Positions 35,002 through 64,000 of a stretch of DNA of 64,000 nucleotides are shown piece by piece. Within the stretch, counting starts at the first letter, position 1, and every line of letters starts with the position of its first letter. A program made the position numbers and the translations under genes. The notes beneath the pieces are model-generated. The model was not told the origin of the DNA. It did no database searches and saw nothing but the letters and a program-made list of their open reading frames with translations. The stretch lies in the NCBI GenBank assembly GCA_964464495.1, contig CAYXGI010000009.1, positions 42,498 through 106,497 on the forward strand, in the 5' to 3' direction. The stretch comes from an uncultured Phycisphaerales bacterium (GTDB taxonomy: Bacteria > Planctomycetota > B15-G4 > CAYZWU01).

Positions 35002-35015
35002 GGCCGATCCGACTA

Positions 35016-45113: not shown

Positions 45114-45125
45114 TGGTTGGAGAGA

Positions 45126-45667
45126 CGATGGGCAGGAGCGGATTCACTCTCATAGAATTGCTGATCGTGGTGATCATACTGGCCATTCTGGCCGGGATCG
45201 TCATTCCTCAGTTTAGAGCCAATATCGACGACGTGAAGATGGCGAGTGTCGAAACCAATGTGGAAGTGGTCCGCAAGGCGATCGAGATCTACCACACGGA
45301 CCATGGCGGGACCTTTCCGGGCCATCCTGACGGCGACACTTCGCTCAGCCCGACCGAAGGGGTTCTCATCAACCAGCTTCTTCTCAAAACCGACAAGCGC
45401 GGCGTCATCGATCCGGGCGGAACTTGTGGACCATACCTCAGAGCGCAAGCCGGATTTTTCCCCATCAATCCCTTCAACAAGAAAGCCGCAGTCGCGGTCT
45501 ACATGAGAAGCGGCGAGGTGCCGACCGTTGACAGTGAGTTCGGGTGGTACTACATCGCGTCAACGGGCGACTTCAATGGCGTAACCCCTGAATCCGCTGA
45601 GACTCCGGAGACACCGCCCGCCGACATGCCTCCTGGCCGCGGCCGGCGTCCAGAGGGCAGCCTCTGA
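45126..45667 (+). CDS. GspG-like major pseudopilin / type IV pilin (prepilin N-terminal methylation domain)
   Basis: MGRSG|FTLIELLIVVIILAILAGIVIPQF class III signal. GGAGAG RBS 4-5 nt upstream. An alternative start lies at 45110 (ATGA overlap with the kinase stop). Pro/Glu-rich C-terminal tail. Confidence 0.8.
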
Positions 45668-45860
45668 TCGTGTGATCGCGCAGCGTCAGGTGCGCGGCCG
45701 AGTTTCAGAATCCTTGTGGTCCCCACATGCTCGGCGTGATCGATCTTTTTTTTACTCTCGATTAAATTTCCCCAATCCCGGTGCCGATAAGCAACTAATG
45801 ATGAACATACTTTAATACGCCGACGATGGAGACAGTCTGTTCGGGATAAGGAGAAAGGAA

Positions 45861-46337
45861 ATGAATATGCATCGTAAGGAAGGTTTTACACTGGTTGAAC
45901 TCTTGATCGTGGTCATCATTCTCGGGATTCTGGCCGCAGTCGTGATTCCGCAGTTCGGAAGCGCGTCTCTGGAAGCCAAGGAATCAGCGCTGATGACCAA
46001 TCTCGCCGCTGTGCGCGGAGCGATCGACCTCTACCGGATCCAGCACCTGGAGGTGTTTCCAGGGGATCTGAGCGGCGTCGTGAGCTGGGCTAACTTCGAG
46101 ACGCAGATGACAGCGCAAACCGACGTCGATGGCGCCGCGGGCACAGACTATGGTCCGTATCTCAGAACCGGTATTCCGCGCAATCCGATCAACGGGTTCA
46201 ACACGGGCACCGAAGGTGCGATCCCCGGGGCTCCTGATGGACTCACGGGATGGTACTACGACCAGTCGACAGGCGAGCTCCGGGCGAATGCGGCCGGAAC
46301 CGGCCCTTCGACCGGGATCGACTATTTCGACATGTAA
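45861..46337 (+). CDS. GspG-like major pseudopilin / type IV pilin
   Basis: MNMHRKEG|FTLVELLIVVIILGILAAVVIPQF. AAGGAGA RBS. 158 aa. Confidence 0.8.
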   Translation: MNMHRKEGFTLVELLIVVIILGILAAVVIPQFGSASLEAKESALMTNLAAVRGAIDLYRIQHLEVFPGDLSGVVSWANFETQMTAQTDVDGAAGTDYGPYLRTGIPRNPINGFNTGTEGAIPGAPDGLTGWYYDQSTGELRANAAGTGPSTGIDYFDM

Positions 46338-46467
46338 GACAGTCATGGGACGGATGAAGCGAGGGTGAGGTGGGACGGCTCCTCGAGGCGAGATGCTCTC
46401 GGGGAGCTGTTTCATGCCGCCAACAACACTGACCGGGAAGGGGGCGAACGTCGGGGAGACGTGAGCG

Positions 46468-47010
46468 ATGGGAAATACCGGATCGAAAAGCAGGCCGGCA
46501 ACTCATAATGCCGGACAGACACTCACGGGGAAGAACCGAAACGGTTTCACACTCGTTGAAGTCATGATTGCCGTGGTGGTCGTCGGTATCGGCGTCGCCG
46601 CATCGCTTTTCGGCATGGGAACCAGCGTGATCAACGCAGACGCCGGCCGCGACGTGCTCGTCGCGGGGATCCTCTCCGACTACATCTGGCAGTATTCAGA
46701 AGAGCTCGAATTCTGGGATCCTCAAGAGAACGAGAATTTCGGGATCGAGACGGACGAAAACGGTTTCGACGACTACGACGACATCGACGATCTTCACGGA
46801 CAGGTCATATCCCCACCCGTGGGCGCAGACGGTGAAATTCTGACATCATTCCCGAACTGGACTCAAGAGATCACCGTTGCCGGACTCGATCCGGTCTCTT
46901 TCCTGGCGCTCGTCAATCCAGGGGTCACTCCTGTCCGCAGAGTGCGGGTCACCATCCTGAAAGCCGACAGGGAGGTGGAGAGTTACGAGTGGATCGTGAC
47001 GAGACTGTGA
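46468..47010 (+). CDS. minor pseudopilin (GspI-like)
   Basis: GFTLVEVMIAVVVVGIGVAASLF prepilin helix, preceded by an unusually long N-terminal leader in the ORF-track model; the true start may be later. 180 aa. Acidic mid-region. Confidence 0.65.
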   Translation: MGNTGSKSRPATHNAGQTLTGKNRNGFTLVEVMIAVVVVGIGVAASLFGMGTSVINADAGRDVLVAGILSDYIWQYSEELEFWDPQENENFGIETDENGFDDYDDIDDLHGQVISPPVGADGEILTSFPNWTQEITVAGLDPVSFLALVNPGVTPVRRVRVTILKADREVESYEWIVTRL

Positions 47011-47017
47011 GGCGATT

Positions 47018-48145
47018 ATGAAAAGAGCATGTGAAAAAGACAGATCTTTCCTTCAGAGGGGAACGATTCTGGTCCCCTGCCTGTTCATGCTCACTCTCAT
47101 CTCCATGATCACTCTCGGAATCCTTAACGTGGGCGGTGTGGGAGCGAACATCTCAGCGGCGCTGGCCCAGAAATCCCAGGCGGAACTCGTCGCCACATCG
47201 GGCCTCGAGATCGGTTACCGAAGGCTGTGCGAGGATCTCAACTATTCGGGCGAGTCCTGCTTGCCGCTTTCGATCCCCGCGTCGTCTGTCGAGATCTCGG
47301 TTCTGCCGCTGGCCAACAACGAGTACGAGATCACTTCGCTGGGGCGGGCGCGCGATGCAGAGCGGCTGCTCAGGACCAAGGTCCAGGGCAGGCAGTGGGT
47401 TTACAACTATCCTCTCTCCGTGGGCGGCGATCTGGGGCTCTGGGGATCGGCGAAAATCCTGGGCGATTGCTACGTGACCGGTGCCATCCGCGGTGGGAGC
47501 CCGGCTTTCATCGCCGGCGACCTCCACCTTCCCGGAGACAGGGATATCCAGTACGACGTGTACGGAAATCCCACGCGTGTCGATGGCTACGTCATTTCGG
47601 GAATCGAAGGAAACATTCACACCTATGCGCGGGCTCTCGATTTTCCCGGGATCTCGCTTGCGGCGCTGCGCGAACAGGCGATCGCCGCCGGCCAGCTCTA
47701 CTCGGGAGCTGTCTTCCTCGAGAATCAGGTCTTTGACGGTGTTGTCTACATCGAGAACACCTATCTGACTCCGGTTCTCTCGAACGTGGTGATCAACGGA
47801 ACCCTGGTCTGCGAAGACGTCTGGATCCTGAGCGTGGGCAACGGCTTCCTGAAGGTCCGCTGCAACGAGGGTGTTTGCGCCAATGTGGCGGTTATCGCCC
47901 CGGAGACCTGTTTTGCCGTCGGGGTCAACGCCGAGGTTGATCTCTACGGACTCAGCTTCTTCGGTGCGGGGCATTTCTTCGGCAAAGGGACTTTTACCGG
48001 CCCTCTCGTCATCTGGAACACCCTGGTGACCTACGGCGGATCGTCCCTCTGCTGTCAGTTTCCCGCGGTACTCAAGGACTTCATCTATTCCAACCTGATG
48101 TGGTCCGAACACAGTATCAAAGAGTTGGAGTTCGAGGTTCAGTGA
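47018..48145 (+). CDS. minor pilin-like protein (PilX/GspK-like N-terminus) with beta-helix-like C-terminal region
   Basis: N-terminus RSFLQRGTILVPCLFMLTLISMITLGILNV resembles the PilX_N/GspK hydrophobic segment. The C-terminal ~250 aa show ~20-25 aa periodic G/V/I-rich repeats (VISGIEGN, VFLENQVFDGVVYIENTY, VVINGTLVCEDVWILSVGNG) suggestive of a beta-solenoid. Confidence 0.6.
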   Translation: MKRACEKDRSFLQRGTILVPCLFMLTLISMITLGILNVGGVGANISAALAQKSQAELVATSGLEIGYRRLCEDLNYSGESCLPLSIPASSVEISVLPLANNEYEITSLGRARDAERLLRTKVQGRQWVYNYPLSVGGDLGLWGSAKILGDCYVTGAIRGGSPAFIAGDLHLPGDRDIQYDVYGNPTRVDGYVISGIEGNIHTYARALDFPGISLAALREQAIAAGQLYSGAVFLENQVFDGVVYIENTYLTPVLSNVVINGTLVCEDVWILSVGNGFLKVRCNEGVCANVAVIAPETCFAVGVNAEVDLYGLSFFGAGHFFGKGTFTGPLVIWNTLVTYGGSSLCCQFPAVLKDFIYSNLMWSEHSIKELEFEVQ

Positions 48146-48609
48146 AAACTAATCGCGACGCATTCACGCTGGTTGAGTTGATGGTGACGATTGTCATCCT
48201 TGCCGTTCTGGGAGGCATTGTGGTCACGGCGACAGTCGACACGGTGAGCACCAAGGCGGAAATCAACTCACGTGAAATCAAGAGTGCCATTCGCTATGCC
48301 AAGGTTTTCGCTCTTTCCCAGCGGTGCGCACACAGGATCATCTTCGATTCGGGCAGCAACGCGATCAGGGTCGAAGACGACGCCGGTAATGTCGCCTGGA
48401 ATCCGGTGACCTACTCGCCCTACGAGTGGACACTCGCCCACGGCACGATCGGGTCTGTCGATTTCGACGGCGGCAACTTTCTGGAATTCGGCACCTCGGG
48501 TGAGGGCGAGTCGGGCGGCAGCTTTGAAGTCGCCTACAACGGATTGACCCAGACCTTCACGGTCTCGCCGATCACGGGGCGTGTCGCCCTCGAGGAGGTG
48601 AGAAATTGA
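48142..48609 (+). CDS. minor pseudopilin (GspH/FimT-like)
   Basis: GTG start overlapping the previous stop (GTGA). DAFTLVELMVTIVILAVLGGIVV prepilin helix. ~155 aa. Confidence 0.7.
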   Translation: MKTNRDAFTLVELMVTIVILAVLGGIVVTATVDTVSTKAEINSREIKSAIRYAKVFALSQRCAHRIIFDSGSNAIRVEDDAGNVAWNPVTYSPYEWTLAHGTIGSVDFDGGNFLEFGTSGEGESGGSFEVAYNGLTQTFTVSPITGRVALEEVRN

Positions 48610-49706
48610 AGTGCAACAGCCTGGCAAGCCAATCTGGTTTCACTCTGATCGAGATCCTTCTCGTCGCCGCGATCGGCGGAGTCCTGCTCACGGCCCTGAC
48701 CATTTCGACGGGAGTCTTTCTCGACAACTACTCTGTAGCGCTCGATAGCCAGGATTTGACTCTCGCCCATCAGATCGCTCTCGATCGGGTTCTCGATTCG
48801 ATCACCGAGGCCGAGGAGATCGAAGTGGAGTCTTCCAATTCGATCCGGCTCACCTTTCCCGATGGGAACAGCGATCGGTATTTCTGGTCGGGCAACGCGG
48901 GCGAATGCCTCAAACTCGAACGGAACGGCGGCGATGCCCATCCCTTTGTCGACGGCGTGGTGAGTCTCGACTTCACGGGCAATATCGCTTCTGCCTACAA
49001 CGAGGTGATTCAGGTGGAGACCGAGAATCTTCTGAGTTTCGATGACTTCAGCGGCTACGCGTTCGGCTGGGAAAACCATGCCATCGAGCCGTCGAGCCTG
49101 CATGGATTCACCTTTTACATCACCTGGAACGAGAGGGTGGAGGAGATCGCGCTGACGCAGCTCGATCTGAGGCTCGCCAAGCTGCCCGCGCAGCAGGGAG
49201 ATCTCAAGATTTCGCTTCTCGAAGGGATCACCGAAAAAGTACCCCGCATGAACGGGGACGCCATCGCGAGCTGCGTGATATCCAACGCCGACATTGCCGC
49301 GGCCTACTGGGATGGACATGACTGGGTGATCGGATCGACGACGTTTGTCTTGACAGAAGATTTCGTCATCCAGCCCAACAGGTACTACTGCCTCCTCTGC
49401 GAACCCGCGGGCGGGGTCGAAGCGGCCACGATGGCCGTGGCGTGCATCACGAGCAATTACGGCCCTGTCAACGGCAGCGTTTACATCGGCTCGGTCGACG
49501 GGGGGGCCACATGGGATCCTCCCCTGACCTGGGGTGAATACAGGCAAAAGGATGTCCCTTTCCAGCTGACGGGAGACGTTCAGTTTTACGAACGGATCCC
49601 TGAGCAGTATGTCAAGTCTGTCGACGTGACGCTCGGGATCGAACTTGGCGGGAAGGAAGAATACGGCTCGGGAAGAGCCCAAGTGCGAGGAGGTGGTGAG
49701 AGGTGA
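48606..49706 (+). CDS. large minor pseudopilin (GspJ-like, 366 aa)
   Basis: MKCNSLASQSG|FTLIEILLVAAIGGVLLTALT class III signal. Long C-terminal globular region. 4-bp overlap with both neighbours. Confidence 0.65.
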   Translation: MKCNSLASQSGFTLIEILLVAAIGGVLLTALTISTGVFLDNYSVALDSQDLTLAHQIALDRVLDSITEAEEIEVESSNSIRLTFPDGNSDRYFWSGNAGECLKLERNGGDAHPFVDGVVSLDFTGNIASAYNEVIQVETENLLSFDDFSGYAFGWENHAIEPSSLHGFTFYITWNERVEEIALTQLDLRLAKLPAQQGDLKISLLEGITEKVPRMNGDAIASCVISNADIAAAYWDGHDWVIGSTTFVLTEDFVIQPNRYYCLLCEPAGGVEAATMAVACITSNYGPVNGSVYIGSVDGGATWDPPLTWGEYRQKDVPFQLTGDVQFYERIPEQYVKSVDVTLGIELGGKEEYGSGRAQVRGGGER

Positions 49707-51397
49707 AAAAGCTTTTTTCTCTGAATGTGTCGACCCTGTCTCCGATCAGCGTGAGAGTCGGTCGAAAATCGGTTTACCTGCTCCAGGCGAGATTTCACCA
49801 GGGGGCGATCGCGGCGCTCAATTCGGAGTCGGTGACGATCGAAGAATCGGACAGCGACCGGGACCGCGCCGTGGCGAAGTCGATCGCCTACTGCCTGAGC
49901 AAGGGTGAGTTCAAGGGCCGAAAGGCAGTACTGATCCTGAGCAATGAAGAGGTCCTGATCGAGCACCAACGTGTTCCCGTCGGCCCGGACGAGGGGGCAG
50001 GTAGTGATATCGAAGCACGATTGCTCGAGGAACTGCGTCTGAGCAACACCTGCGACATGGACAATTCTTTCACGCGCTACCTGCCGCTGGGCGAGGTCTA
50101 CGAGAGACACGAGCGCAAGGAGGAGTTGCTTCTCATGGTGGTCGGGACCGAGGTCATCGATCGCTATATCAAGGTGTTCAAGAGCGCCCATCTGACCCTC
50201 CACCGTATCGCAGTGGAACCCTTCGCTTTGCAAAGCGCGGCGCTCCGGTTCTGTCCCGTTGAATGGATGGGCGAGAATCCGACGGGGATGATCAACATCG
50301 GCGAGACCAAGATCGATATTCTCATTCTCCACAAGGGCCAGGTGGCGTTTGTCCGTTCCCTGCCGCTTGGAGTGGAGAAATTCACCGCTTCGATCGCCCG
50401 TCGCATGAGCATAGACGAGGAAGGAATGGCCAGAATCGTCCATGCCATGGGAAACGGCGGTAGCGTGAACGAGACCGTTGAGAAGGCGGTCAAGGCCGCC
50501 GTGCGCCCCGACATGGAACTCGTCGCTTCCGAGATAATCACCTGCTTCAGGTATTTTTCAGCGAACCACAACCGCGAACCGGTCGACCGGCTGATCGTCG
50601 TGGGAAGCGGCGCCGCACAGCTGGCGGGAAAGAATTTTCTCCGCGATCGGCTCGATGTGCCGGTTCTCTTCTGGAGAGACGATCTTCCCGTCGCCGGCGA
50701 CGGCAACCCCCTGTCGGGCAACCGGCTCGACGACGAGTACGTTTCTCTCGCGGGGCTCGCCGCAGACGAGTTCGCGGGGGTGAAACAGGATGTCGATTTT
50801 CTTCCCGAGGAAGTCGAGACGCGCCGTCTTCGCAAAAAGGTCAACAGGCTGAGAACGGTCTACCTGCTTTTGACTCTCTGTCTCATCGCAATGTTCTACT
50901 CCAAGGCCTCACAGCGGCTCACCCGGCTCAATAGCCTCAATGACATGTTCGTGAGCAGGAGCAACCTGCTCCAGATGAATACCAAGGCGGTCGATCAGCT
51001 CAAGACGCTCTCTTCCAATTTCGTCGATCGAGAGTCGCAGCTCTCCATGACGGTCTGCCCAGTGCTCCCGTCGCGCGTCCTGGCCGAGATCGTTTGTGTC
51101 GCCGGACCGGGAATCAGCCTTGGCATGATGTCGGCCGACTTTTCCTACGACACGCGCCACGAGGCTTATGGAAAGAAGGGCAAAAAAACACGCCAGGTCA
51201 CCGACCATGCCAATCCGCGTCTCTTCTTGACTGTAGTGGGAAAGGCCGCTTCCGCCGACGAGGTGTCGCTCTTCGTGGAACGGCTCAAGAAGACGGGCGC
51301 CTTTTCGTCGATCCGTGACGAGGGCTCGTGGGACGTCCTGCGGAACAACTCCGACCAGAAGCAGTTCACTATCAAGCTCACCGTGGGAGAAGGATAG
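49703..51397 (+). CDS. PilM-PilN fusion / GspL-like inner-membrane assembly protein
   Basis: N-terminal ~380 aa actin-like ATPase fold typical of PilM (NIGETKIDILILHKGQVAFVRSLPLGVEKFT...LIVVGSGA). A single TM (LRTVYLLLTLCLIAMFY) and a ~160 aa periplasmic domain follow. Confidence 0.75.
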   Translation: MKKLFSLNVSTLSPISVRVGRKSVYLLQARFHQGAIAALNSESVTIEESDSDRDRAVAKSIAYCLSKGEFKGRKAVLILSNEEVLIEHQRVPVGPDEGAGSDIEARLLEELRLSNTCDMDNSFTRYLPLGEVYERHERKEELLLMVVGTEVIDRYIKVFKSAHLTLHRIAVEPFALQSAALRFCPVEWMGENPTGMINIGETKIDILILHKGQVAFVRSLPLGVEKFTASIARRMSIDEEGMARIVHAMGNGGSVNETVEKAVKAAVRPDMELVASEIITCFRYFSANHNREPVDRLIVVGSGAAQLAGKNFLRDRLDVPVLFWRDDLPVAGDGNPLSGNRLDDEYVSLAGLAADEFAGVKQDVDFLPEEVETRRLRKKVNRLRTVYLLLTLCLIAMFYSKASQRLTRLNSLNDMFVSRSNLLQMNTKAVDQLKTLSSNFVDRESQLSMTVCPVLPSRVLAEIVCVAGPGISLGMMSADFSYDTRHEAYGKKGKKTRQVTDHANPRLFLTVVGKAASADEVSLFVERLKKTGAFSSIRDEGSWDVLRNNSDQKQFTIKLTVGEG

Positions 51398-51402
51398 GAG
51401 AG

Positions 51403-51936
51403 ATGAAGAAAAAAGAACTGATGTTGGTGATAGGGGTGGCGATCGGAATCGTTCTCTGCTTCTACCTCATAGTCTACAAGCCCTCGTCGAGCGAGATCGA
51501 CAAGATCAAGTCCGGCATGCACCAGTATCAGGGCATCGGGCTCCGTGAGAAGGTCATGAAGCAGACCCATTTCAAGAAGAAGGAAGAGGTGGAGGAATTG
51601 ACGACGCGAGTCGACTGCCTCGCCGAAAGGCTTCTCAGTCCCGAAGACGAGGATGTCTTCATGAAGGAGCTCAGACGAATCGTCGCCGCCGCGGAGGTCC
51701 ACGGCGATTCGGTCAAGCGCAACGGAGTGGTTCGCAAGGGCGAGCAGACCTTCCTCACCTTCGGCGTCCGGCTCAAGGGGAGTTTCGAAAAAGTATACGC
51801 CTTCCTGCGCGCCGTTGAAGACCTGGACAAGAACGTCTGGTTCGACAAACTCAAGCTGACCCGCGCCGAGGGAACGAGCGGAATCGTTTCGCTCGATCTG
51901 AGTCTCAGTGTGCCGCAGTTGAAAGAATTGGAGTGA
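51403..51936 (+). CDS. PilO/GspM-like bitopic assembly protein
   Basis: ATG 51403 with AGGAG RBS. Single N-terminal TM (LMLVIGVAIGIVLCFYLIVY), coiled-coil region, C-terminal ferredoxin-like region. Position after PilM/N is conserved in type IV pilus / T2SS operons. Confidence 0.6.
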   Translation: MKKKELMLVIGVAIGIVLCFYLIVYKPSSSEIDKIKSGMHQYQGIGLREKVMKQTHFKKKEEVEELTTRVDCLAERLLSPEDEDVFMKELRRIVAAAEVHGDSVKRNGVVRKGEQTFLTFGVRLKGSFEKVYAFLRAVEDLDKNVWFDKLKLTRAEGTSGIVSLDLSLSVPQLKELE

Positions 51937-52514
51937 GTCCCGTGGGATTGAAGGTAGATAATCTCAAAAACACGCTCAAAAAGGAACAGAAGAAGGTCGC
52001 CTTTTTGGTCGCGCTCGCAGCGGTTTTTCTCTACGTCTGGATCCCTCTCATGAAGGGATCCGATCCGGTTCCGAATCCAGCGGCGGCCAACCTCAATCCA
52101 AAAGCCACGGCGAAAAGCCGGACAGGCAAGGCGGGGCGCGAAGCAACTCCGCCCGTGACGGAGAAAGAACGAAAAGTCACCTATCCCGCATTCCTGAAAA
52201 AACCCCTTCCGGCAGTGATGCTGCCAAGAAATCCATTCCTCTCGTTGGCCGACGAAACCCCACCCGAACCGGAACCTGTCGCAGTGGAAGAGACCAACAC
52301 CGAGGAAGAGGCCCTCAAGGCGACTGAAAAGGCGCGGGCCGAGAAGATGGTCATCACATCGACAATGCTCTCCGGTCGCAACCCGTCGTGCGTGGTCGAC
52401 GGACTCGTTCTGGTTAAGGGATCCGAATATAACGGTTTCAAGGTCAAGAAGATAAGCGAGTTCGGCGTCGTCTTCGTGGGTGAATACGGCGCGTATCAGG
52501 TCACGATACGTTAA
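51933..52514 (+). CDS. PilP/GspC-like periplasmic assembly protein
   Basis: N-terminal TM (VAFLVALAAVFLYVWIPLM), Pro/Glu-rich linker, C-terminal small beta domain (GLVLVKGSEYNGFKVKKISEFGVVF). Immediately precedes the secretin. Confidence 0.5.
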   Translation: MSPVGLKVDNLKNTLKKEQKKVAFLVALAAVFLYVWIPLMKGSDPVPNPAAANLNPKATAKSRTGKAGREATPPVTEKERKVTYPAFLKKPLPAVMLPRNPFLSLADETPPEPEPVAVEETNTEEEALKATEKARAEKMVITSTMLSGRNPSCVVDGLVLVKGSEYNGFKVKKISEFGVVFVGEYGAYQVTIR

Positions 52515-52591
52515 GTCTAAAGTATTCGACGTGGAAAGACGATTACTTGTTTAACTCAAGAGTGTTAACCACTTGTTATGGGGTGGATTCC

Positions 52592-54316
52592 ATGTGCAGC
52601 AAAAAGTGCATTGTTTTCTGGTCGACTCTGGCAGCGCTTGTTATCTGGTCGTCGACGCTTTGCGCTCAAGATGAGCCTCCCGTGGAAGAACCGGTGATCG
52701 AGGCCACGATCCTCGAATTGGAAGTCGATGATGAAGAGATCGAGATGGGCGAGGGGATCTTCCTCAACGCCCCCTCGGCCGATATCCGCGCTCTGCTACA
52801 GCAGATTTCCCAGTCGGAGCGGATCAACATCGTTGCCGCCGGTGATGTGGAAGGCAGCGTGTCGGTCAACCTCTACGGCGCGACAGTCGACCAGGCCCTC
52901 GAGGCGATCCTCTCTCCGCAGGGTTACGGCTACGTGCGCAAGGGCAACTTCATCTACGTCATGAAATTGGACGAGCTCGGCGCGTTCGGTGTGAGCCAGG
53001 GACGCCTCGAAACAAAGATCTATATCCTCAACTACCTCTCCATCGACGACGCGAAGGAACTGCTCCCCCTTTATCTCTCCGACGATGGAGAGATGAAGCT
53101 CTGTAAGGAGTCGGAAGCGGGTATTCCCACGGGCGACACCGAAACCGGGGGCGAGTCGAACGCGTCCAACAATCTCATCGTGATCAAGGATTTTCCCGAC
53201 GTCCACCGCAACCTCGCCGAGGCGCTCATGGTTCTCGACGCTCCTCCGAGGCAGGTCTTGGTCGAAGCCACGATCGTCGAGGTCACTCTCGACGACACGA
53301 ACCGTCTCGGTGTGAATTTCACCGCCCTCGGCGGAGTTGATTTCGCCGATCTGGACCCCTCCACCACGTCGGACCTCAGGGGTATCACGCCCGGCGATGC
53401 CGGGGCAGGATCGATCGACGCAGGATTCAACGCTTTCGGGACGCGCGGTTTCTTATCGCCCCAATCCGATCAGGGATTCTCCTTCGGAATCCTGAAGAGC
53501 GATCTCGCTATTTTCCTCGATGCTCTGGAGAGCGTGACCGACACGAACGTCCTGGCCAATCCCAAGATCCTCGCGTTGAACCGACAGCGGGCGGAGTTCA
53601 TCAGTGGCGGCCGGTTGGGATATTTCGGCAGCGAGACCTTGAGCGACGGCGGATTTTCCCAGCAGGAGGTCGAATTCCTCGACGTGGGAACGCAACTCAG
53701 GTTTCGCGCTTTCATCGGCGCCGACGACTTCGTCAGGATGGAGATTCATCCCGAGCGGTCGGACGGCGTGGTCGATTCCGTCACCGGCCTGCCCTCTGAG
53801 ACCACCTCCGAGGTGACGACCAACATTCTCGTCAGGAACGGCGACACCGTGGTCATCGGCGGCATGATCGAGGAGAGAGACACGTCGACCGTCTCCCAGG
53901 TTCCGCTCCTCGGATCGATCCCGATCATCGGATGGCTCTTCAAGAAGGAAGAAACGTCCACCCGTCGCGTGGAGATCATCATTATGATCACCCCCAAGAT
54001 CATCGATCCCTATTCCCAGGACGACGAGGCCGAGGAGATGCTCGCCGGGTTCAAGGAACGCAAGAAGGCGTTCCGCCACGGATTCAAATTTTACACGCGC
54101 ACGGTGAGAGCCGAGTGCCACAGGGAGAGAGCGCGCCACGCCATCGAGGACGGCAAGTACGGGCACGCCGGTTTTCATCTCGGCTGGGCGCTGAGTCTCG
54201 ATCCCAATGTTTCCGAAGCCCACGAGCTCAAAGCGCAGCTCGAGGCCCTCAATGCGGCAAGTGAACCGCAAGAGGATACGCTGGAAGAATATATCTGGAG
54301 CAGTGAAATCAAATGA
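52592..54316 (+). CDS. secretin (GspD/PilQ family)
   Basis: Signal peptide MCSKKCIVFWSTLAALVIWSSTLCA. N-domains, then the secretin core (VLANPKILALNRQRAEFISGG...TTNILVRNGDTVVIGGM...VPLLGSIPIIGWLFKKEETSTRRVEIIIMITPKII). The ORF-track start at 52547 is also possible. Confidence 0.85.
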   Translation: MCSKKCIVFWSTLAALVIWSSTLCAQDEPPVEEPVIEATILELEVDDEEIEMGEGIFLNAPSADIRALLQQISQSERINIVAAGDVEGSVSVNLYGATVDQALEAILSPQGYGYVRKGNFIYVMKLDELGAFGVSQGRLETKIYILNYLSIDDAKELLPLYLSDDGEMKLCKESEAGIPTGDTETGGESNASNNLIVIKDFPDVHRNLAEALMVLDAPPRQVLVEATIVEVTLDDTNRLGVNFTALGGVDFADLDPSTTSDLRGITPGDAGAGSIDAGFNAFGTRGFLSPQSDQGFSFGILKSDLAIFLDALESVTDTNVLANPKILALNRQRAEFISGGRLGYFGSETLSDGGFSQQEVEFLDVGTQLRFRAFIGADDFVRMEIHPERSDGVVDSVTGLPSETTSEVTTNILVRNGDTVVIGGMIEERDTSTVSQVPLLGSIPIIGWLFKKEETSTRRVEIIIMITPKIIDPYSQDDEAEEMLAGFKERKKAFRHGFKFYTRTVRAECHRERARHAIEDGKYGHAGFHLGWALSLDPNVSEAHELKAQLEALNAASEPQEDTLEEYIWSSEIK

Positions 54317-55446
54317 TACCCTTCAAGGAGAAGAATCGAGGCCGGAATCGGGCGCCCCTGTTCGCGGGCGCCCTTCTGCTGTTTCTGATCTCGGCCGCGG
54401 GATGCGTTTCGGTCGAATCCGATCCGAAGGGAGAACACGATTCGTCCTTCGACTACGCTCTCGTGAACTTTCATTACAAGATGGCCGAAAAATTCTGGAA
54501 CCAGGGCAAGGAGGATCTGGCGGTCAAGTATCTCCACAAAGCCGTGGTCGGCGATCCGACCGCCCTCGAACCGAGGCTTGGACTCATCGACATCCACGTG
54601 GCCAGAGGCAGCGTCGATGAGGCGCTGACGACGATCGACAGCTTTCCCGAGGAGATGAAGTACGATTCCGAAGTGCTCGATCGCCTCCTCTACATTCTCG
54701 AACTCAAAGGCGACGACGAGGCGGCCGCCCGTGTGATCGCCGAGGCTCAGGATCGCGAGGTCCCGACGGCGCGGTTCTTGAAGACGCGGGCCGAGGCACG
54801 CGTTTTTCGGAACGATTTTGCCACGGCCCTGAAATTCTACGAGCGGGCGCGCAGGGATTTCCCCCAGGACACCGCCCTGCTCGAAGCGATGTCGGCACTT
54901 TACGGCCTCATGGGACGGGAGGCGCAAAGAGCCGAGATCCTCGTCGATCTCATCGCTCTTCTTCCGGAGAGAACCGACTTTCCGATCGAGGCGGCGCGTG
55001 CCTTTGAAAAGGCCGGGCGCCCGAAGGAAGGAATCGTCCAGCTCGAGTCGCTGATTCTCGGCGAGGGCAGGATGGTCCGCGGCGACGTCTGCCAGGGGCT
55101 CGGGTATCTCTATATCCGCGAGGAGCGCTGGCAGCACGCCTGCGAGATCTATGAGCGGGCTCGCGTGCGGGGGGACGCCGTCCTGACCTTGGAGGAGAGG
55201 AAAAGTCTTGCCGAGACCTATCTCAGAAACGGTGAAAACGTCAAGGCCGCGGCCGAACTGCAGGACCTCGTGCTGCGGCAGCCGGAAGATCCCGTGACGC
55301 GCGCCGCGCTCGCTCTCGCCTACTGGCGCATGGGCCACGTTGAGCGCGCCGAGGAGATAGTCAAGGGCGCCGGTGCGGGAACGAAAGAGGGGACCGTTCT
55401 TGGCGCGGTGGAGAATAAGATAAGAGGAGGAAAGAGCGTTGACTAG
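54313..55446 (+). CDS. TPR-repeat lipoprotein (PilF/PilW-like candidate secretin pilotin)
   Basis: Lipobox LISAAGC. Multiple TPR-like hairpins (FWNQGKEDLAVKYLHKAVVGDP, ALKFYERARRDFPQD, YERARVRGDAVLTLEERK). 4-bp overlap with the secretin stop. Confidence 0.7.
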   Translation: MIPFKEKNRGRNRAPLFAGALLLFLISAAGCVSVESDPKGEHDSSFDYALVNFHYKMAEKFWNQGKEDLAVKYLHKAVVGDPTALEPRLGLIDIHVARGSVDEALTTIDSFPEEMKYDSEVLDRLLYILELKGDDEAAARVIAEAQDREVPTARFLKTRAEARVFRNDFATALKFYERARRDFPQDTALLEAMSALYGLMGREAQRAEILVDLIALLPERTDFPIEAARAFEKAGRPKEGIVQLESLILGEGRMVRGDVCQGLGYLYIREERWQHACEIYERARVRGDAVLTLEERKSLAETYLRNGENVKAAAELQDLVLRQPEDPVTRAALALAYWRMGHVERAEEIVKGAGAGTKEGTVLGAVENKIRGGKSVD

Positions 55447-56845
55447 CAGACAGGGAGTGATTCCGGCGGGCGCCTACTTTGTGGGTATAGCCATGGTTGC
55501 AGCCGGCACCGCGCTCTCCTTTCAGGCTTCGGGGACGGCCGGAATGCCGGTCGTGCTCGCCGCCGCGGGGGTTGCGCTTCTACTCGTGGCGATCCCCTTG
55601 TTCAACAGCCGTTTTCTCAAGCCGATCAGGAAACTCAAGTGTGAGGCCGAGCGCTTCGCCAGCGCCTGTCTCGACGGAGGCGCGCGCCGCGGCGAGACCA
55701 TCGCAGATGTGGCGCACAGCCTCGAAGCGATCCAGGCGGAGCTTTCCGAGAGCCGGCTGAAGACAAAGGAACTCGAGTCGACGGTCAACGTCTTCATGGC
55801 CGAGAAGCAGCAGACCGAGGCGATTCTCAAGTCTCTGCCGAGCCCCGTACTGGTGACCGACCGGTTCGAGGATCTGCTCCTCGCCAACGATGTGGCGGGC
55901 CGGCTTTTTGGATTCGATTCCATGGAAAGCCGCGGGAAGCCGCTGTCTGAAATCCTCGAATTCGATCTTCTCGTCAACCTCATTCGCGAGACATCGGCGA
56001 GCAAGCTCAAGGTGCCGCGACGCACCGTCGAGGTCAGCTACAAGACCGCTGACGGAGAGCTGGTCGAACTGCGGGCGTGTCTCTCGAGTATCATCGACCC
56101 TTCGGGCCAGATCCTCGGCGTGGTGACCATCATCCAGGACATCACCAAGGACAAGGAGATCGACAGGATGAAATCGGAGTTCGTGGCCAACGTGTCCCAC
56201 GAACTCAAGACACCACTTTCTTCGATACAGGCCTACGTGGAGATGCTCGTCGATGGGGAGGCACCGGACGAAGAAACGCGCCAGAGCTTCTACTCGATCG
56301 TCGACTCGGAAACCAAACGTCTCAGCTCGATGATCGAAAACCTCCTCAATCTCTCCAGGCTGGAAGCCGGCGTCATACAGCTCGAAAAGGACCGGGTCGC
56401 TCTGCACAAGGTGCTGGAGGAGGTGACACAGGTCATCACCCCTCACATGGAACGGAAGAGCCAGAAGCTGGAGACCGAAATTTCTCCCTATCTTGTTCCC
56501 GTGGCGGGCGACAAGGCCTACCTCTCGCGGGTCTTCACTAATCTGCTGTCCAATGCATGCAAGTACACTCCCGAGAAGGGAACAGTCAAGCTCAAGGCGC
56601 GCGTCGAGGGGGACATGGTCCGCGTCGACGTGATCGACACGGGCTATGGAATATCGGCGGAGGAGAAGAAGAAGATCTTCGACAGTTTCTATCGCGTCCA
56701 GGGCGCTGCCAGCAAAGCGCAGGGAACGGGTCTCGGGCTCGCCATCTCACGGAAGATCATCGAGATGCAGAACGGGACGATCAAGGTCGAGTCGGAAACC
56801 GGCAAGGGAAGTTGCTTCACCGTGTCCCTTCCGGCCGCCGAGTGA
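55439..56845 (+). CDS. membrane-bound PAS-domain sensor histidine kinase
   Basis: Two N-terminal TM helices. PAS-like region (LPSPVLVTDRFEDLLLANDVAGRLFGF). HisKA (FVANVSHELKTPLSSIQAY). HATPase_c (NLLSNACKYTP, DTGYGIS, GTGLGLAIS). Possible TTG/GTG/ATG starts between 55439 and 55493. Confidence 0.85.
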   Translation: MTSRQGVIPAGAYFVGIAMVAAGTALSFQASGTAGMPVVLAAAGVALLLVAIPLFNSRFLKPIRKLKCEAERFASACLDGGARRGETIADVAHSLEAIQAELSESRLKTKELESTVNVFMAEKQQTEAILKSLPSPVLVTDRFEDLLLANDVAGRLFGFDSMESRGKPLSEILEFDLLVNLIRETSASKLKVPRRTVEVSYKTADGELVELRACLSSIIDPSGQILGVVTIIQDITKDKEIDRMKSEFVANVSHELKTPLSSIQAYVEMLVDGEAPDEETRQSFYSIVDSETKRLSSMIENLLNLSRLEAGVIQLEKDRVALHKVLEEVTQVITPHMERKSQKLETEISPYLVPVAGDKAYLSRVFTNLLSNACKYTPEKGTVKLKARVEGDMVRVDVIDTGYGISAEEKKKIFDSFYRVQGAASKAQGTGLGLAISRKIIEMQNGTIKVESETGKGSCFTVSLPAAE

Positions 56846-56861
56846 GGCGAGGAGGCGCGAA

Positions 56862-57149
56862 TTGGGAGTGAAAACCGTTCTCATCGTCGATGACGAGTTC
56901 CACATCGTGAACGCGTTGGCCCTGAAATTTCGAAGCTCGAACTTCTTTGTGGTCACCGCCGGCAACGGCCGGGAAGCCCTGCAGAGAATCGGTGAATCGA
57001 AACCCGATCTCGTGATCACCGCACGGGAACAGGACTTCGACGAAGCATCCGGGGGGAAGGTGGACGTCGATGCTTTCGTGAGCAAACCCTTCAGTCCGCG
57101 AGCGATGGTGTCGCAGTCGAGGAAATTGATCGGAGCGCGCCATGAGTGA
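56862..57149 (+). CDS. single-domain response-regulator receiver protein (divergent)
   Basis: TTG/GTG start after the kinase stop. VKTVLIVDDEFHIVNALALKF...DLVITA...KPF receiver-domain hallmarks but an atypical acidic-pocket region. ~95 aa. No output domain. Confidence 0.55.
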   Translation: MGVKTVLIVDDEFHIVNALALKFRSSNFFVVTAGNGREALQRIGESKPDLVITAREQDFDEASGGKVDVDAFVSKPFSPRAMVSQSRKLIGARHE

Positions 57150-57492
57150 TCTGAGCAGCGTTACGAATCTCGAGAGCGTCGTCAAGGCCGAGATCATCGA
57201 GCTCGAGGAGGAATATCTCTCCAGGAACACTCAGGCCTTCACCGAGAGCGTGACCGACGCGATCGAGCGGGGACGCCGACTCATCGTGGTCGACTGCCAC
57301 AGGTGTAAAAGTGTCGACTCGGCGAGCCTCGAGAGTCTGCTGTGGGCGATCGAGGAGATCCAGGACAGGGGAGGCCTCATGAAGATCGCCTGCCTCAACG
57401 ACACGATGAAAAAGGTCTTCGAAATCACGCAGTTCGACAGGATTTTCGAAGTTTACGACGACGTGCTCTATGCCGTCAAAGCCTTTGCCTAG
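57142..57492 (+). CDS. STAS-domain protein (anti-sigma-factor antagonist, SpoIIAA-like)
   Basis: 116 aa. LIVVDCHRCKSVDSASLESLLWAIEEIQDRGGLMKIACLNDTMKKVFEITQFDRIFEVY matches STAS/anti-anti-sigma topology with a conserved Ser (SVDSAS). Confidence 0.7.
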   Translation: MSDLSSVTNLESVVKAEIIELEEEYLSRNTQAFTESVTDAIERGRRLIVVDCHRCKSVDSASLESLLWAIEEIQDRGGLMKIACLNDTMKKVFEITQFDRIFEVYDDVLYAVKAFA

Positions 57493-57508
57493 GAGGACGT
57501 ACCGAGGA

Positions 57509-59221
57509 ATGGAGACTGTCGCGCCGCATCAGACAAACCTTGGGGAAACGCTCGTCAGGAAAGGGATTCTCACTCCCGATCAGCTCGAGCTCGCTCTGGT
57601 CGAGAAGGAAAAAGTTCCCTTCGAGAAACTGGCCGAAACCCTGAAGAGGCTCGAACTCATCGAGGAGGAAGAGCTTCTCGCCGTCATGGCGGAGCAGAAC
57701 GGTATCCCCTATCTCAAGATCGAGAAGGGGCTCTACGATCCTGATGTTTTCGGCGTCCTTCCCAAGGAATTCATCGAGAGCAACCTCGTGCTGCCCCTCT
57801 TCAAGATCCGCGACACGCTGACCATGGCGGTCCCGGAGCCGCTCAATATCTTTCTCATGGACTCGCTGAAGAGGCTCTCGGGCCTCAACGTGAATATCGC
57901 GCTTGCCAGTCCCGAGGACCTGGCGCGGGCGATCCGGCAGATCGGCGACTGCAAGAAGGCCTTTCTCGTCGACGATATCATCGAGAACATTCGCGAGGAC
58001 GACATCAAGGTCGTGGAGCGCGAGGTCGACGACATCGACCAGATCGAGGCTGCGGCCGGGCTCTCACCCGTGGTGCGTCTCGTCAACTTCATCATCTACA
58101 AGGGGATCAACGAGGGCGCTTCCGACGTCCATATCGAACCGGACGAGGGGATGCTGCGCGTGCGTTACCGCGTGGACGGAATTCTCAGGGAAGGCATGAG
58201 GCCGCCCGTCCAGCTCCAGTCGGCGGTCGTTTCGAGAATCAAGATCATGTCCGACCTTGACATCGCCCAGCGCCGTATCCCCCAGGACGGCAGGATGCAG
58301 GTCATGATGAACAACCGGCTCATCGACCTGCGTATCTCGATCCTGCCGACCTTTCACGGCGAAAAGGTGGTCATCAGGATTCTCGACAAAGACTCGGCGC
58401 TCAAGGGACTGGACAAGCTCGGTTTCGGGATCGAGACGCTCGAGGAATTTTCGAAGCTGATCATCAAACCGAACGGCATCATCCTCGTGACCGGCCCCAC
58501 GGGAAGCGGCAAGACGACCACGCTCTACTCGAGCCTCCAGACGATCAACTCGGTCGACAAGAATATCAGCACCGTGGAAAATCCGATCGAATACAACCTC
58601 AAATTCGTGAACCAGGTTCAGATCAACGAAAAAGCGGGCCTCACCTTTGCCGGTTCGTTCCGCTCCCTTCTCCGGCAGGACCCGGACATCATTCTTGTCG
58701 GCGAGATCCGCGACAAGGAAACGGCCCAGATCGCTGTCCAGGCCGCCCTGACAGGCCACCTCGTTCTGTCGACCCTGCACACGAACGACAGTCTCGGCGT
58801 GGTGACGCGACTGATCAACATGGGCGTCGAGCCCTTTCTGATCTCGTCTTCCCTGTCGGCGGCGCTCGCCCAGAGGCTGGTGCGGAAGATCTGTCCCGCC
58901 TGCCGCGAACAGATTCCGGTCACGTCCATCGTCACCCGTCTTTTCAAGAAACACGATCTCGATGTGGAGACGGTTTACGAGGGCAGGGGCTGCTCCAAGT
59001 GCGGCCGAACAGGATACGCCGGCCGAGTCGGCGTCTACGAACTCCTGACCGTCGACGATGATCTGCGCGACCTCATCGTCACGTCCCCGGCGATCAGCGA
59101 GCTGCGGGACTACGCGCGGTCTCACAACTTGAAAAGTCTGCGCTACGATGCGCTTCGAAAAGTGCGCGAAGGTTTGACTACCGTCGATGAGGTTACCCGT
59201 ATCAGTGAGGATACGTTCTGA
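57509..59221 (+). CDS. type II secretion / type IV pilus assembly ATPase (GspE/PilB family)
   Basis: AGGAGG RBS, ATG 57509. N-terminal GSPII_E_N domain. Walker A GPTGSGKTTTLYS, Asp box, Walker B, His box. Tetracysteine motif CPACR...CSKCGRTGY. Confidence 0.9.
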   Translation: METVAPHQTNLGETLVRKGILTPDQLELALVEKEKVPFEKLAETLKRLELIEEEELLAVMAEQNGIPYLKIEKGLYDPDVFGVLPKEFIESNLVLPLFKIRDTLTMAVPEPLNIFLMDSLKRLSGLNVNIALASPEDLARAIRQIGDCKKAFLVDDIIENIREDDIKVVEREVDDIDQIEAAAGLSPVVRLVNFIIYKGINEGASDVHIEPDEGMLRVRYRVDGILREGMRPPVQLQSAVVSRIKIMSDLDIAQRRIPQDGRMQVMMNNRLIDLRISILPTFHGEKVVIRILDKDSALKGLDKLGFGIETLEEFSKLIIKPNGIILVTGPTGSGKTTTLYSSLQTINSVDKNISTVENPIEYNLKFVNQVQINEKAGLTFAGSFRSLLRQDPDIILVGEIRDKETAQIAVQAALTGHLVLSTLHTNDSLGVVTRLINMGVEPFLISSSLSAALAQRLVRKICPACREQIPVTSIVTRLFKKHDLDVETVYEGRGCSKCGRTGYAGRVGVYELLTVDDDLRDLIVTSPAISELRDYARSHNLKSLRYDALRKVREGLTTVDEVTRISEDTF

Positions 59222-60411
59222 TGAATATGCCTGACACAAACAACCAGAGTGGACTTGGATCTCAGCCGGCCAACGGCCTGGCAACGGATTCGAAATCCCA
59301 GGATCGGCTCTCGCCTCTCACTCCCAAGGTCGACGAGGCCGAGCAGCCCGTGAAGCCAAGTCTTTTCGAAAAGCGCAAGGTGAGCGACAAGGACGTGCTC
59401 TACCTGGTGGACCAGCTGGCCATCATGTTCGAGACGGGCCTCAACCTTCTTCTCGCTCTCGACTGCCTCGCGGTTCAAACCAAGAATCCGGCTTTGAGGC
59501 GTGTCGTGGTCGAGCTCCGGGACGCCATCAAGGAGGGCTCGTCCCTGGCCGACGCCATGTCCAATTTTCCAAAGGTATTCGGTCCGGTCTGCGTCAACAT
59601 GGTCCGCGCCGGTGAGGTGTCGGGCAACATGGACGAGATGCTTCGCCAACTGTCGGAGTATCTCGACAGGGAAATCGAGACACGCAGCCAGATCAAGTCG
59701 GCTCTCAGTTATCCCGTGATCATGCTCTGCATGGCGTTTCTGGTCATCGCCTTTCTGATCATTTACGTTTTTCCCAGGTTCTCGGTCTTCTTCGAGGGGC
59801 ACGAGGAACTTCTTCCGGGGCCGACGAGGATCTTTCTCTGGATCGGAATGACGTGTGAGGCCCACTGGAAATTCATTCTTCCCGGTGTGGTCGCCCTTGG
59901 CGTGGGTGTGTTCTTCGTTTTGAGAGAGCAAAGGGTCAAGGAGATGCTGGACAGGTTCTTCCTTGTCGTGCCCTTTCTCGGAGACCTGATCAGCAAATCG
60001 TCGCTTTCCAGGTCGTTCCACCTGCTCGCCGTGCTGCTTCACGGCGGCATCCCGATCCTGGAGGCGCTGAGGCTGTCCCAGGAAGTGGCCGGTAATGCGA
60101 TCTTTCGGAGGAGCTGGCAGAGGGTCTCCGAAGATCTTCGAAACGGCAAGGACTTCGCGACGCCGTTGAAGGAGAATCCCTACATCCCCATGTCCGAGGT
60201 TCAGATGCTGAGCCTGGGGGAGCGGTCGGGACACCTTTCGACGGTACTCACGAAACTGAGCAAGCACTACGAGAGAGAGATTACTAACGCGATCAGGAGC
60301 CTCATCAAATTCGTGGAGCCCGCTCTGATCATCTGTATGGGATTTCTCGTCGGCCTGATCGTGATGTCCCTGATCCTGCCGATCTTCGCCATCTCCAAAT
60401 GCCAGGGGTGA
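59221..60411 (+). CDS. type II secretion system F-family platform protein (GspF/PilC)
   Basis: 396 aa with two repeats of the T2SSF domain and three TM segments. ATGA overlap with the ATPase gene. Confidence 0.9.
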   Translation: MNMPDTNNQSGLGSQPANGLATDSKSQDRLSPLTPKVDEAEQPVKPSLFEKRKVSDKDVLYLVDQLAIMFETGLNLLLALDCLAVQTKNPALRRVVVELRDAIKEGSSLADAMSNFPKVFGPVCVNMVRAGEVSGNMDEMLRQLSEYLDREIETRSQIKSALSYPVIMLCMAFLVIAFLIIYVFPRFSVFFEGHEELLPGPTRIFLWIGMTCEAHWKFILPGVVALGVGVFFVLREQRVKEMLDRFFLVVPFLGDLISKSSLSRSFHLLAVLLHGGIPILEALRLSQEVAGNAIFRRSWQRVSEDLRNGKDFATPLKENPYIPMSEVQMLSLGERSGHLSTVLTKLSKHYEREITNAIRSLIKFVEPALIICMGFLVGLIVMSLILPIFAISKCQG

Positions 60412-63378: not shown

Positions 63379-63549
63379 TTGTATCAACATTGACCTCAAA
63401 CACTTGACGCAGCCCGGCGTAGATGGTGAAGAAGTACTTTTGAGCCAACGACTTCCTGTGATCACGCTTGGAGCACTAATTGTTGATGCCGGTTTGGGCT
63501 GGATTTGGCCGACAAGAAGGTTACAAGTGATTTCGGATCAGAGCAAGAG

Positions 63550-64000
63550 ATGAACGGTGTAGCTAATTCGGCCATGGTTGATTATCACGACGACGCAGAG
63601 ATCATTCGGCACTGCCAGCAAAACGATCAGAGGGCTTACACCGCTCTGGTGGAGAAATATCAGGATCGAGCCTTCTGGGTCGCCTACAACATGGTCGGCA
63701 ATGCGGAGGAAGCGAGGGATGTGATCCAGGAAGCTTTCGTCCGCGTCTTCAGAGCCATCCAGCGATTCGATTTCAACATGAGTTTCTACACTTGGCTCTA
63801 TCGCATCGTATCAAACCTGTCTATCGACCATCTTCGGAAGATGAAAAGACGACGGCCGGTGCGGCTTGACGACCTTGGCGACAAAGCCTCCGAATTCGTC
63901 GAACAGGTCTCCCCGTCGGCCAGGATCGAGGAGAGCGAAGTGAAACGCGAGGTGCACGCCGTTCTCGACAAACTGCCGCCTAACTACAAGAACGTGATCG
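63550..64000 (+). CDS. RNA polymerase ECF sigma factor (sigma-24/RpoE-like), 3'-partial at window end
   Basis: MNGVANSAMVDYHDDAEIIRHCQQNDQRAYTALVEKYQDRAFWVAYNMVGNAEEARDVIQEAFVRVFRAI...YTWLYRIVSNLSIDHLRK sigma-70 region 2. Runs off the window end. Confidence 0.8.
   Translation, partial: MNGVANSAMVDYHDDAEIIRHCQQNDQRAYTALVEKYQDRAFWVAYNMVGNAEEARDVIQEAFVRVFRAIQRFDFNMSFYTWLYRIVSNLSIDHLRKMKRRRPVRLDDLGDKASEFVEQVSPSARIEESEVKREVHAVLDKLPPNYKNVI

Follow-up and report, generated by a model that had tools for sequence, protein, structure and literature searches.

The stretch of DNA analysed here (hereafter the window) comprises 64,000 nucleotides of contig CAYXGI010000009.1 (assembly GCA_964464495.1, positions 42,498 to 106,497 of the forward strand) from an uncultured marine Phycisphaerales bacterium. 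This account concerns a signalling cassette in which the gene for a single-domain STAS protein directly precedes the gene for the assembly ATPase of a type IV filament system. Open reading frames (ORFs) were called over the whole 64 kb window and scanned against Pfam. The cassette belongs to an operon of approximately 17 kb (43707-60411) in which all genes lie on the plus strand with short gaps or overlaps, and no terminator-like sites were found in its intergenic gaps. Near-identical contigs are present in several JGI and ENA metagenome assemblies. The features of the operon are listed below.

43707-45113, plus strand: histidine kinase with GAF, HisKA and HATPase_c domains (Pfam), the operon's first gene, overlapping at its end with the first pilin gene (45110)
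45110-49706, plus strand: pilin block of five N-methyl prepilin-type pilin or pseudopilin genes (Pfam N_methyl) and one gene for a 375-aa protein with no Pfam match
49703-52514, plus strand: assembly platform genes, encoding a protein of 564 aa with a PilM_2 domain, a PilO-like protein and a protein of 193 aa that Pfam does not match (Pfam; the same genes occur in relatives)
52547-54316, plus strand: secretin with STN and Secretin domains (Pfam, 1.7e-42)
54313-55446, plus strand: TPR lipoprotein, candidate pilotin of the PilF/PilW type (Pfam TPR families; lipobox LISAAGC in the translation)
55439-56845, plus strand: histidine kinase with PAS, HisKA and HATPase_c domains (Pfam)
56862-57149, plus strand: stand-alone receiver of 95 aa, an allele with a 31-codon deletion (Pfam Response_reg and alignments)
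57016-57021, plus strand: TCACCG, the remaining copy of a 6-bp direct repeat at the junction of the 93-bp deletion (DNA alignments with L012-L014 and L176)
57142-57492, plus strand: single-domain STAS protein of 116 aa (Pfam STAS, 1.1e-13)
57509-59221, plus strand: assembly ATPase of the GspE/PilB family with an N-terminal MshEN domain (Pfam T2SSE 3.8e-136, MshEN 2.2e-17)
59221-60411, plus strand: GspF/PilC platform protein, the final gene of the operon (Pfam T2SSF, 3.4e-62)

A sequence-only reading of this DNA had placed kinase, receiver and STAS genes between secretin/pilotin genes and the gene for the assembly ATPase. The Pfam matches bear this out: the three co-directional genes have the secretin and TPR lipoprotein on one side and the GspE/PilB ATPase and GspF on the other. 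The overlaps of 7-8 bp that it described were found at two of the four junctions, namely TPR/kinase (8 bp, if TTG 55439 is the start codon) and receiver/STAS, where the STAS start overlaps the receiver stop by 8 bp (ATGAGTGA); kinase and receiver, and STAS and ATPase, are instead each separated by a gap of 16 nt. By Pfam, the operon holds the components of a filament machine of the type IV pilus (T4P)/type II secretion system (T2SS) class: GspE/PilB, GspF/PilC, PilM/N/O-type proteins, a secretin and prepilin-type pilins. NCBIfam did not decide between PilB and GspE for the ATPase (602 and 597 bits, both under cut-off), nor between PilQ and GspD for the secretin, which matched both models under their cut-offs.

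GspE homologues were sampled at falling identity, and a background set was formed by the metagenome GspE-alignment matches listed, which span 40-51% identity and do not include the close clade. In the close clade, with STAS proteins 47-85% identical to that of the window, the entire operon is syntenic. Five of the more distant loci are arranged as follows.

L092 (GspE 64% identical): kinase, receiver, STAS, GspE, GspF
L093 (GspE 55% identical): operon with another gene order, which opens with receiver, STAS, GspE and GspF and has a GAF kinase later on
L095, the cultured type strain Natronomicrosphaera hydrolytica AB-hyl4 (GspE 51% identical): kinase, receiver, HD-GYP, STAS, GspE, GspF
L177, metagenome-assembled genome labelled 'Planctomycetaceae' (GspE 51% identical): secretin, kinase, receiver, STAS, GspE, GspF, with no TPR gene
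L096, metagenome (GspE 51% identical): HD-GYP, STAS, GspE

The STAS gene lies directly upstream of GspE in 13 lineages (the window, L012, L013, L014, L092, L093, L094, L095, L096, L100, L152, L176 and L177). In the eight measured (the window, L012, L013, L014, L092, L093, L095 and L177), the two genes overlap by 1 nt at the closest and lie 59 nt apart at the widest. All six GspE relatives of 51-74% identity for which the context was fetched have STAS upstream, despite the differing order of the surrounding genes. At 40-51% identity the pairing was found in 3 of the 76 evaluable GspE/PilB loci among the matches listed (L096, L100 and L152), and in these three the sole STAS gene of the locus is the one before GspE. 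No GspE gene was found near the closest STAS relatives in Kiritimatiellota, Lentisphaerota, Chlorobiota and Cloacimonadota (0 of 77 loci). The STAS-GspE adjacency is conserved beyond chance, and because it is kept down to 51% GspE identity in rearranged surroundings, the order STAS-GspE is the invariable part of the cassette. The arrangement of kinase, receiver, STAS, GspE/PilB and GspF is found across Planctomycetota.

The inputs to the cassette vary among lineages, and may be a receiver, an HD-GYP protein, a PAS kinase or a GAF kinase. An HD-GYP (HD_5) gene, predicted to encode a phosphodiesterase of cyclic di-GMP (c-di-GMP), lies directly upstream of the STAS-GspE pair in L095 (5918-7576), L096 (1-1962) and L100 (2-613); in N. 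hydrolytica AB-hyl4 its product carries the motif HHERWDGRGYP and the gene sits between receiver and STAS. Wherever the upstream gene is known, STAS is directly preceded by a receiver or HD-GYP gene, except in L094, where a kinase gene takes this position. The kinase, receiver and STAS genes could be a unit that is only co-transcribed with the ATPase and has an unrelated target, for example transcription or c-di-GMP turnover. Regulatory genes often sit in operons that they control transcriptionally, and the HD-GYP genes in the cassettes of L095, L096 and L100 are consistent with such a passenger. However, the receiver has no DNA-binding or enzymatic output domain, and STAS stays with GspE through operon rearrangement in L093, L095 and L177, which makes a mere passenger distinctly improbable.

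The STAS protein is a single domain resembling SpoIIAA and RsbV. Profile searches of the PDB matched SpoIIAA (1th8_B, 1e-13) and TM1442 (1e-13), and the same two proteins were the top Foldseek matches. The NCBIfam model ant_ant_sig gave 50.3 bits, just under its cut-off of 53.45. The first Ser of the VDSAS motif, S60 (codon 57319-57321), aligns with the phosphorylated Ser58 of Bacillus subtilis SpoIIAA and is shared by all 16 relatives compared, the most distant of them 22% identical, in keeping with the earlier description of SVDSAS as the conserved context of a putatively phosphorylatable Ser. The ratio of nonsynonymous to synonymous substitution rates (dN/dS) against the relative L011 was 0.11, indicating purifying selection. 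An AlphaFold2 (AF2) model of the STAS protein, built with 8 sequences, had a mean predicted local distance difference test (pLDDT) score of 68.8, with a confident core and a poorly modelled, though conserved, C-terminal third.

Chains of MlaB (6xgz_B, 6zy3_B and 7ch7_E) were also among the structural matches, with E about 0.07. MlaB is a single-domain STAS protein bound to MlaF as an accessory ATPase subunit, and by analogy the STAS protein of the window might be a stoichiometric, stabilizing subunit of its ATPase that carries no signal switch, the kinase and receiver regulating something else. Besides the MlaB matches, this would account for a STAS-GspE pair that stays constant across lineages in which the receiver has suffered a deletion, has disappeared or has another gene between it and STAS. 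However, MlaF is an ABC ATPase and not a GspE/PilB hexamer, and the similarity to MlaB is far weaker than that to SpoIIAA. A signalling gene also stands directly before STAS in all lineages with the upstream gene known (in L094, the kinase), and the start/stop overlaps of receiver and STAS suggest that STAS expression is coupled with that of signalling proteins. We regard a constitutive structural cofactor as unlikely.

The core of a partner-switching system consists of a STAS protein, an RsbW-type Ser kinase and a PP2C phosphatase, and proteins of the HsbR and SypE type fuse the kinase and phosphatase domains to a receiver. The sequence-only reading had taken a receiver and a STAS protein for this core. 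Its description of a receiver with no output domain was correct, and the orthologues consist of the receiver domain only, but the pair falls short of the core: the receiver has no kinase or PP2C domain, and the Pfam scan of the window ORFs revealed neither an RsbW/SpoIIAB-type kinase (HATPase_c_2) nor a PP2C phosphatase (SpoIIE). Homologues of a PP2C-RsbW-like kinase protein were found in 0 of 20 GspE-linked loci and in 0 of 80 background GspE loci among the matches listed. A STAS protein with Ser at the start of helix 2 is thus present, whereas the HATPase_c_2 kinase and the PP2C phosphatase are absent locally.

Homologues of the PP2C-kinase part occur in 59 of 77 loci (L015-L091) of the nearest STAS relatives from other phyla. 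The nearest STAS relative that is not linked to GspE, in Pontiella sulfatireligans F21 (L031:3577-6306), adjoins a REC-SpoIIE-HATPase_c_2 protein and a sugar transferase, L031 being the only locus in which a sugar transferase beside the REC-PP2C-RsbW-like protein was checked. L031 and 58 other loci, in Kiritimatiellota and related phyla, hold a partner switch like SypE/SypA or HsbR/HsbA, apparently tied to polysaccharide synthesis. The planctomycete cassette looks like a receiver-coupled partner-switching module that has lost its switching enzymes and become joined to a filament ATPase. Membership in a partner-switching system is not supported locally, that is, in the 64 kb window and the GspE-linked loci, and an RsbW-type or Hanks-type kinase encoded in trans is possible.

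A canonical switch with both enzymes encoded elsewhere would make the STAS protein an anti-anti-sigma factor, with an RsbW-type kinase to phosphorylate Ser60 and a PP2C phosphatase to reverse this, the freed sigma factor controlling transcription, perhaps that of the filament genes. The closest matches in sequence and structure (SpoIIAA, TM1442 and RsbV), the invariant Ser60 aligned with SpoIIAA Ser58, and the REC-PP2C-RsbW-like proteins beside the nearest STAS relatives in Kiritimatiellota, Lentisphaerota and Chlorobiota (the same 59 of 77 loci) all speak for it. On the other side, no HATPase_c_2 or SpoIIE gene was found in the window or the 20 GspE-linked loci, and STAS is syntenic with GspE rather than with a sigma factor.

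The sigma factor nearest to the cassette is of the extracytoplasmic function (ECF) type (Sigma70_ECF; window 63487-64000). Its start, at about 63505/63550, agrees with the position given earlier. A divergent ChaN-like gene and AccA lie between it and the cassette, and it is followed by genes for a 182-aa protein (a zf-HC2 anti-sigma factor in relatives), a trypsin-PDZ protease (HtrA-like) and a PDZ-domain protein (L001:16364-19983). This sigma/anti-sigma/protease set is a self-contained module conserved only in the close clade, and no ECF sigma gene stands beside the cassette in L092, L093, L095 or L177. The nearby ECF factor has a zf-HC2 partner of its own and is not conserved beside the cassette. 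To our knowledge, ECF sigma factors are not usual targets of RsbW-type anti-sigma factors. The canonical switch is accordingly improbable in our judgement. A second ECF sigma gene lies at 2670-3227 of the window.

The sequence-only reading had offered either post-translational gating of filament assembly or sigma-factor control. A link to a sigma factor was rejected as the primary reading, as the synteny of STAS follows GspE and not the ECF sigma gene, which has its own zf-HC2 partner. The STAS gene accompanies GspE rather than any sigma factor, which speaks for control of the motor at the post-translational level.

The receiver gene of the window starts at TTG 56862, with an AGGAGG ribosome-binding site at 56850, six bases before, and its Pfam Response_reg match covers only profile positions 1-48 of 111. 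Orthologous receivers in relatives are 123-135 aa in length and conserve the DD pair, the phospho-acceptor Asp, T and K. Against these orthologues and CheY, the 95-aa window receiver lacks 31 residues, in a gap that runs from the phospho-acceptor Asp (equivalent to CheY D57) through helix 3 and strand 4, while D10, D11 and K75 are retained. The residue set of a two-component receiver (a phospho-acceptor Asp at the end of strand 3 together with DD, T/S and K) is thus incomplete in the window but complete in all full-length orthologues and in P0131, a protein of 126 aa that was found in a search with the 95-aa query. P0131 is 100% identical over all 95 shared residues and contains the missing segment, DYQMPVMNGLDLVRTLRSDRATREIPIIMLT. 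What had been described as an atypical acidic pocket (DLVITAREQDFDEA) proved, from the alignments and the full-length P0131, to be the junction of a 31-codon in-frame deletion that removed the phospho-acceptor Asp. In DNA alignments with L012-L014 and L176, the gap is exactly 93 bp, in-frame, and lies between two copies of TCACCG, an arrangement that suggests the slippage between short direct repeats of which it is typical.

Six independent assemblies are identical to the window over 55439-57492, with the deleted receiver included. An assembly artefact as the origin of the deletion was ruled out, since the same sequence is present in six assemblies from different samples. The contig that encodes P0131 (L176; 1220 bp, coverage 2.7) has a single mismatch to the window among the 288 receiver nucleotides that the two share, whereas its flanking kinase and STAS genes diverge by 5.5-7%, mostly at synonymous sites. 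Compared over window positions 56449-57575, there are 28 mismatches in 56452-56671 (the 3' end of the kinase gene), 1 in 56672-57159 (the whole receiver gene), and 32 from 57160 on. Given this mosaic, either sister populations that are about 93-94% identical have recombined in the receiver region, or the low-coverage assembly is chimeric. Because the P0131/L176 receiver is near-identical to the window allele outside the 93 bp, the deletion must be very young, and the window receiver is a very recent in-frame deletion and predicted loss-of-function allele. Since the phospho-acceptor Asp is deleted, phosphotransfer from the kinase to this receiver is impossible.

The remnant of the receiver had a dN/dS of 0.24 against L011, the highest in the operon and still below 1; this value is uninformative on decay because the deletion is far younger than the divergence from L011. 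AF2 modelled the truncated receiver with a mean pLDDT of 69.2, with about 80 in the N-terminal half, less than 50 at residues 57-68 and a weak C-terminus. The model is compatible with a damaged fold and carries little weight, as AF2 cannot judge the stability of deletion mutants. A further copy of the 95-aa deleted allele, P0130 (ENA contig of 1731 bp), adds the change I8S in the hydrophobic first strand (VLIVDD to VLSVDD), a single observation that may hint at relaxed constraint or first decay after the deletion. The receiver of FimX has no phospho-acceptor Asp yet matters for function (PMC11656802), and a degenerate receiver is therefore not automatically inert.

The receiver is missing altogether from L094 (GspE 74% identical), where 32 nt separate the kinase stop from the STAS start, and kinase and STAS are kept (L094:5520-6260). 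The deletion in the window and the absence of the gene in L094 are two independent cases of damage to, or loss of, the receiver input. The N-terminus of GspE in L094 is split into a 63-aa ORF and a 511-aa ORF, through a frameshift or a sequencing error.

The PAS kinase of the window has two N-terminal hydrophobic segments separated by a short loop, by which it is membrane-anchored, followed by the PAS, HisKA and HATPase_c domains. It has an intact H-box (SHELKTPL) and clear matches to HisKA (1.4e-20) and HATPase_c (2.3e-29), as expected of a two-component kinase. Its dN/dS against L011 was 0.086. The kinases of relatives are intact as well. No second receiver was found in the Pfam scan of the window ORFs. 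With the local receiver dead, the PAS kinase and the GAF kinase at 43707-45113 are both orphans in the window. The latter gave a weak match to NCBIfam T2SS_HK (NF038348; 77 versus 450 bits), and a GAF kinase also lies inside the L093 operon.

That the kinase is strongly constrained and is kept in two lineages with a dead or absent receiver raises the idea that STAS might dock directly on its GHKL domain, in analogy to SpoIIAA and SpoIIAB, and alternate between kinase and ATPase, the receiver being dispensable. The order in L094, in which the kinase gene is directly followed by STAS, would fit. However, the kinase is a standard HisKA/HATPase_c enzyme (102 bits for HATPase_c, against 17.7 bits, below cut-off, for HATPase_c_2), L093 has receiver, STAS and GspE with no adjacent PAS kinase, and the receiver losses may be too recent for the kinase to have decayed. 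We know of no precedent for a STAS protein docking on a HisKA-type histidine kinase, and consider this arrangement very unlikely.

Our preferred reading, in which we place about even confidence, is that the STAS protein may be an accessory regulator of the motor ATPase that is fed by two-component signalling, with the feed severed in the window strain. STAS would bind the GspE motor or its MshEN N-domain and so gate the assembly of filaments at the post-translational level. Input would come from the membrane PAS kinase and the stand-alone receiver, joined in some relatives by the HD-GYP c-di-GMP phosphodiesterase. Ser60 could be a contact residue, or the phosphorylation site of a kinase encoded elsewhere. 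The window strain would then have a STAS-ATPase pair with no receiver input, or its kinase would signal by another route or partner.

Several points weigh against this accessory-regulator reading. Gene adjacency proves co-expression and not binding; a chain from kinase through receiver to STAS is not obligatory, as the receiver is damaged or lost in two lineages with the kinase kept; the invariant Ser fits a classical phospho-switch, the enzymes of which may be encoded elsewhere; and the AF2 models are mediocre (mean pLDDT 68.8 for STAS and 69.2 for the receiver). A bolder version, which we put forward only tentatively, is that such single-domain STAS proteins could form an unrecognised class of direct cofactors of GspE/PilB ATPases in Planctomycetota and a few other lineages. 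The STAS protein would be a repurposed antagonist with the filament motor, not an anti-sigma kinase, as its partner, and would be switched by the phosphorylated form of a CheY-like receiver, by c-di-GMP or by both, and not by a dedicated Ser kinase/phosphatase pair.

Further features of the operon and of the window were recorded. The ATPase most likely starts at ATG 57509, and the preceding AGGAGG overlaps the STAS stop codon. Its MshEN domain (57509-57700) scored 36.3 bits with the NCBIfam model of the MshE-related c-di-GMP motif, just short of the cut-off of 38; on visual inspection, NLG replaces RLG at the start of the first motif and the second looks degenerate, and c-di-GMP binding by this domain is uncertain. 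The 375-aa protein of the pilin block (47018-48145), which has no Pfam match, occupies the same position in relatives; it could be a GspK-like component or else a minor pilin of large size. Neither PilT nor a prepilin peptidase was seen in the window. Two isolated GspG-like pseudopilin genes (N_methyl and T2SSG domains; 23244-23801 and 25017-25589, minus strand) lie amid metabolic genes, far from the filament operon. A cyclic-nucleotide signalling cluster at 32445-39066 contains the following genes.

32445-33296, minus strand: metallo-beta-lactamase-fold gene resembling class-II cAMP phosphodiesterases
33400-35001, plus strand: MscS-type channel with a cyclic nucleotide-binding domain
36730-39066, minus strand: CHASE2-adenylate/guanylate cyclase

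The cassette was compared with known systems. As in HsbR/HsbA of Pseudomonas and SypE/SypA of Vibrio fischeri, a single-domain STAS protein with a conserved Ser stands beside a receiver-containing protein with two-component input, the genes are embedded in a surface-structure locus, and the output is not necessarily a sigma factor. Modules of these types also hold the nearest STAS relatives in Kiritimatiellales, beside a sugar transferase. Unlike HsbR and SypE, the receiver here is a stand-alone CheY-like protein with no PP2C or RsbW-like domain, and the conserved neighbour is a GspE/PilB ATPase. SpoIIAA and RsbV share with the STAS protein the fold and the position of the Ser, but here the neighbouring genes include no cognate anti-sigma kinase or phosphatase and no group-3 sigma factor.

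Regulation of T4P and T2SS motors is known mainly from Proteobacteria, where it involves c-di-GMP and MshEN, PilZ-FimX, CpiA and phage peptides, and we know of nothing comparable for Planctomycetota. Small cytoplasmic adaptors, together with two-component and c-di-GMP signalling, control the extension ATPase PilB post-translationally (PMC11656802). The cassette resembles these systems, FimX included, in its MshEN-bearing ATPase, in the HD-GYP genes of some members and in a receiver with no phospho-acceptor Asp, but its adaptor is a STAS protein and not a PilZ or EAL protein; the terms 'STAS' and 'anti-sigma' do not occur in that review of PilB cofactors (PMC11656802). In the Btr system of the Bordetella type III secretion system (T3SS), the secretion machine depends on a STAS protein for its function at a post-transcriptional level (PMC8256260), although a full kinase and phosphatase set accompanies a T3SS there, whereas none accompanies the type IV filament system here. 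The topics of a 2021 review on STAS-only proteins are sigma control, type III secretion in Bordetella and biofilm in Vibrio; pili, type II secretion and ATPases are absent from it (PMC8256260). Full-text literature searches for STAS or anti-sigma antagonists with PilB, GspE, T2SS, T4P or Planctomycetes yielded nothing relevant, and within the literature searched the STAS-GspE association appears undescribed. The cassette is a variation on two known themes, regulation by STAS-only proteins and the control of type IV filament motors through cofactors, with good comparative support for a functional link to the ATPase.

The receiver also serves as a warning, as an apparently exotic active site was in fact a young loss-of-function deletion, and the double independent loss bears on which parts of the module are essential. 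The cassette is carried by the cultured N. hydrolytica AB-hyl4, which makes the idea testable. If the proposal of STAS proteins as direct motor cofactors is true, the deleted and full-length receiver alleles that coexist in oxygen-minimum-zone populations would be a natural experiment that uncouples the motor from its sensor. A STAS gene tied to a motor ATPase would then represent a new type of motor cofactor, and would give a non-sigma output to the very large and mostly uncharacterised family of STAS-only proteins.

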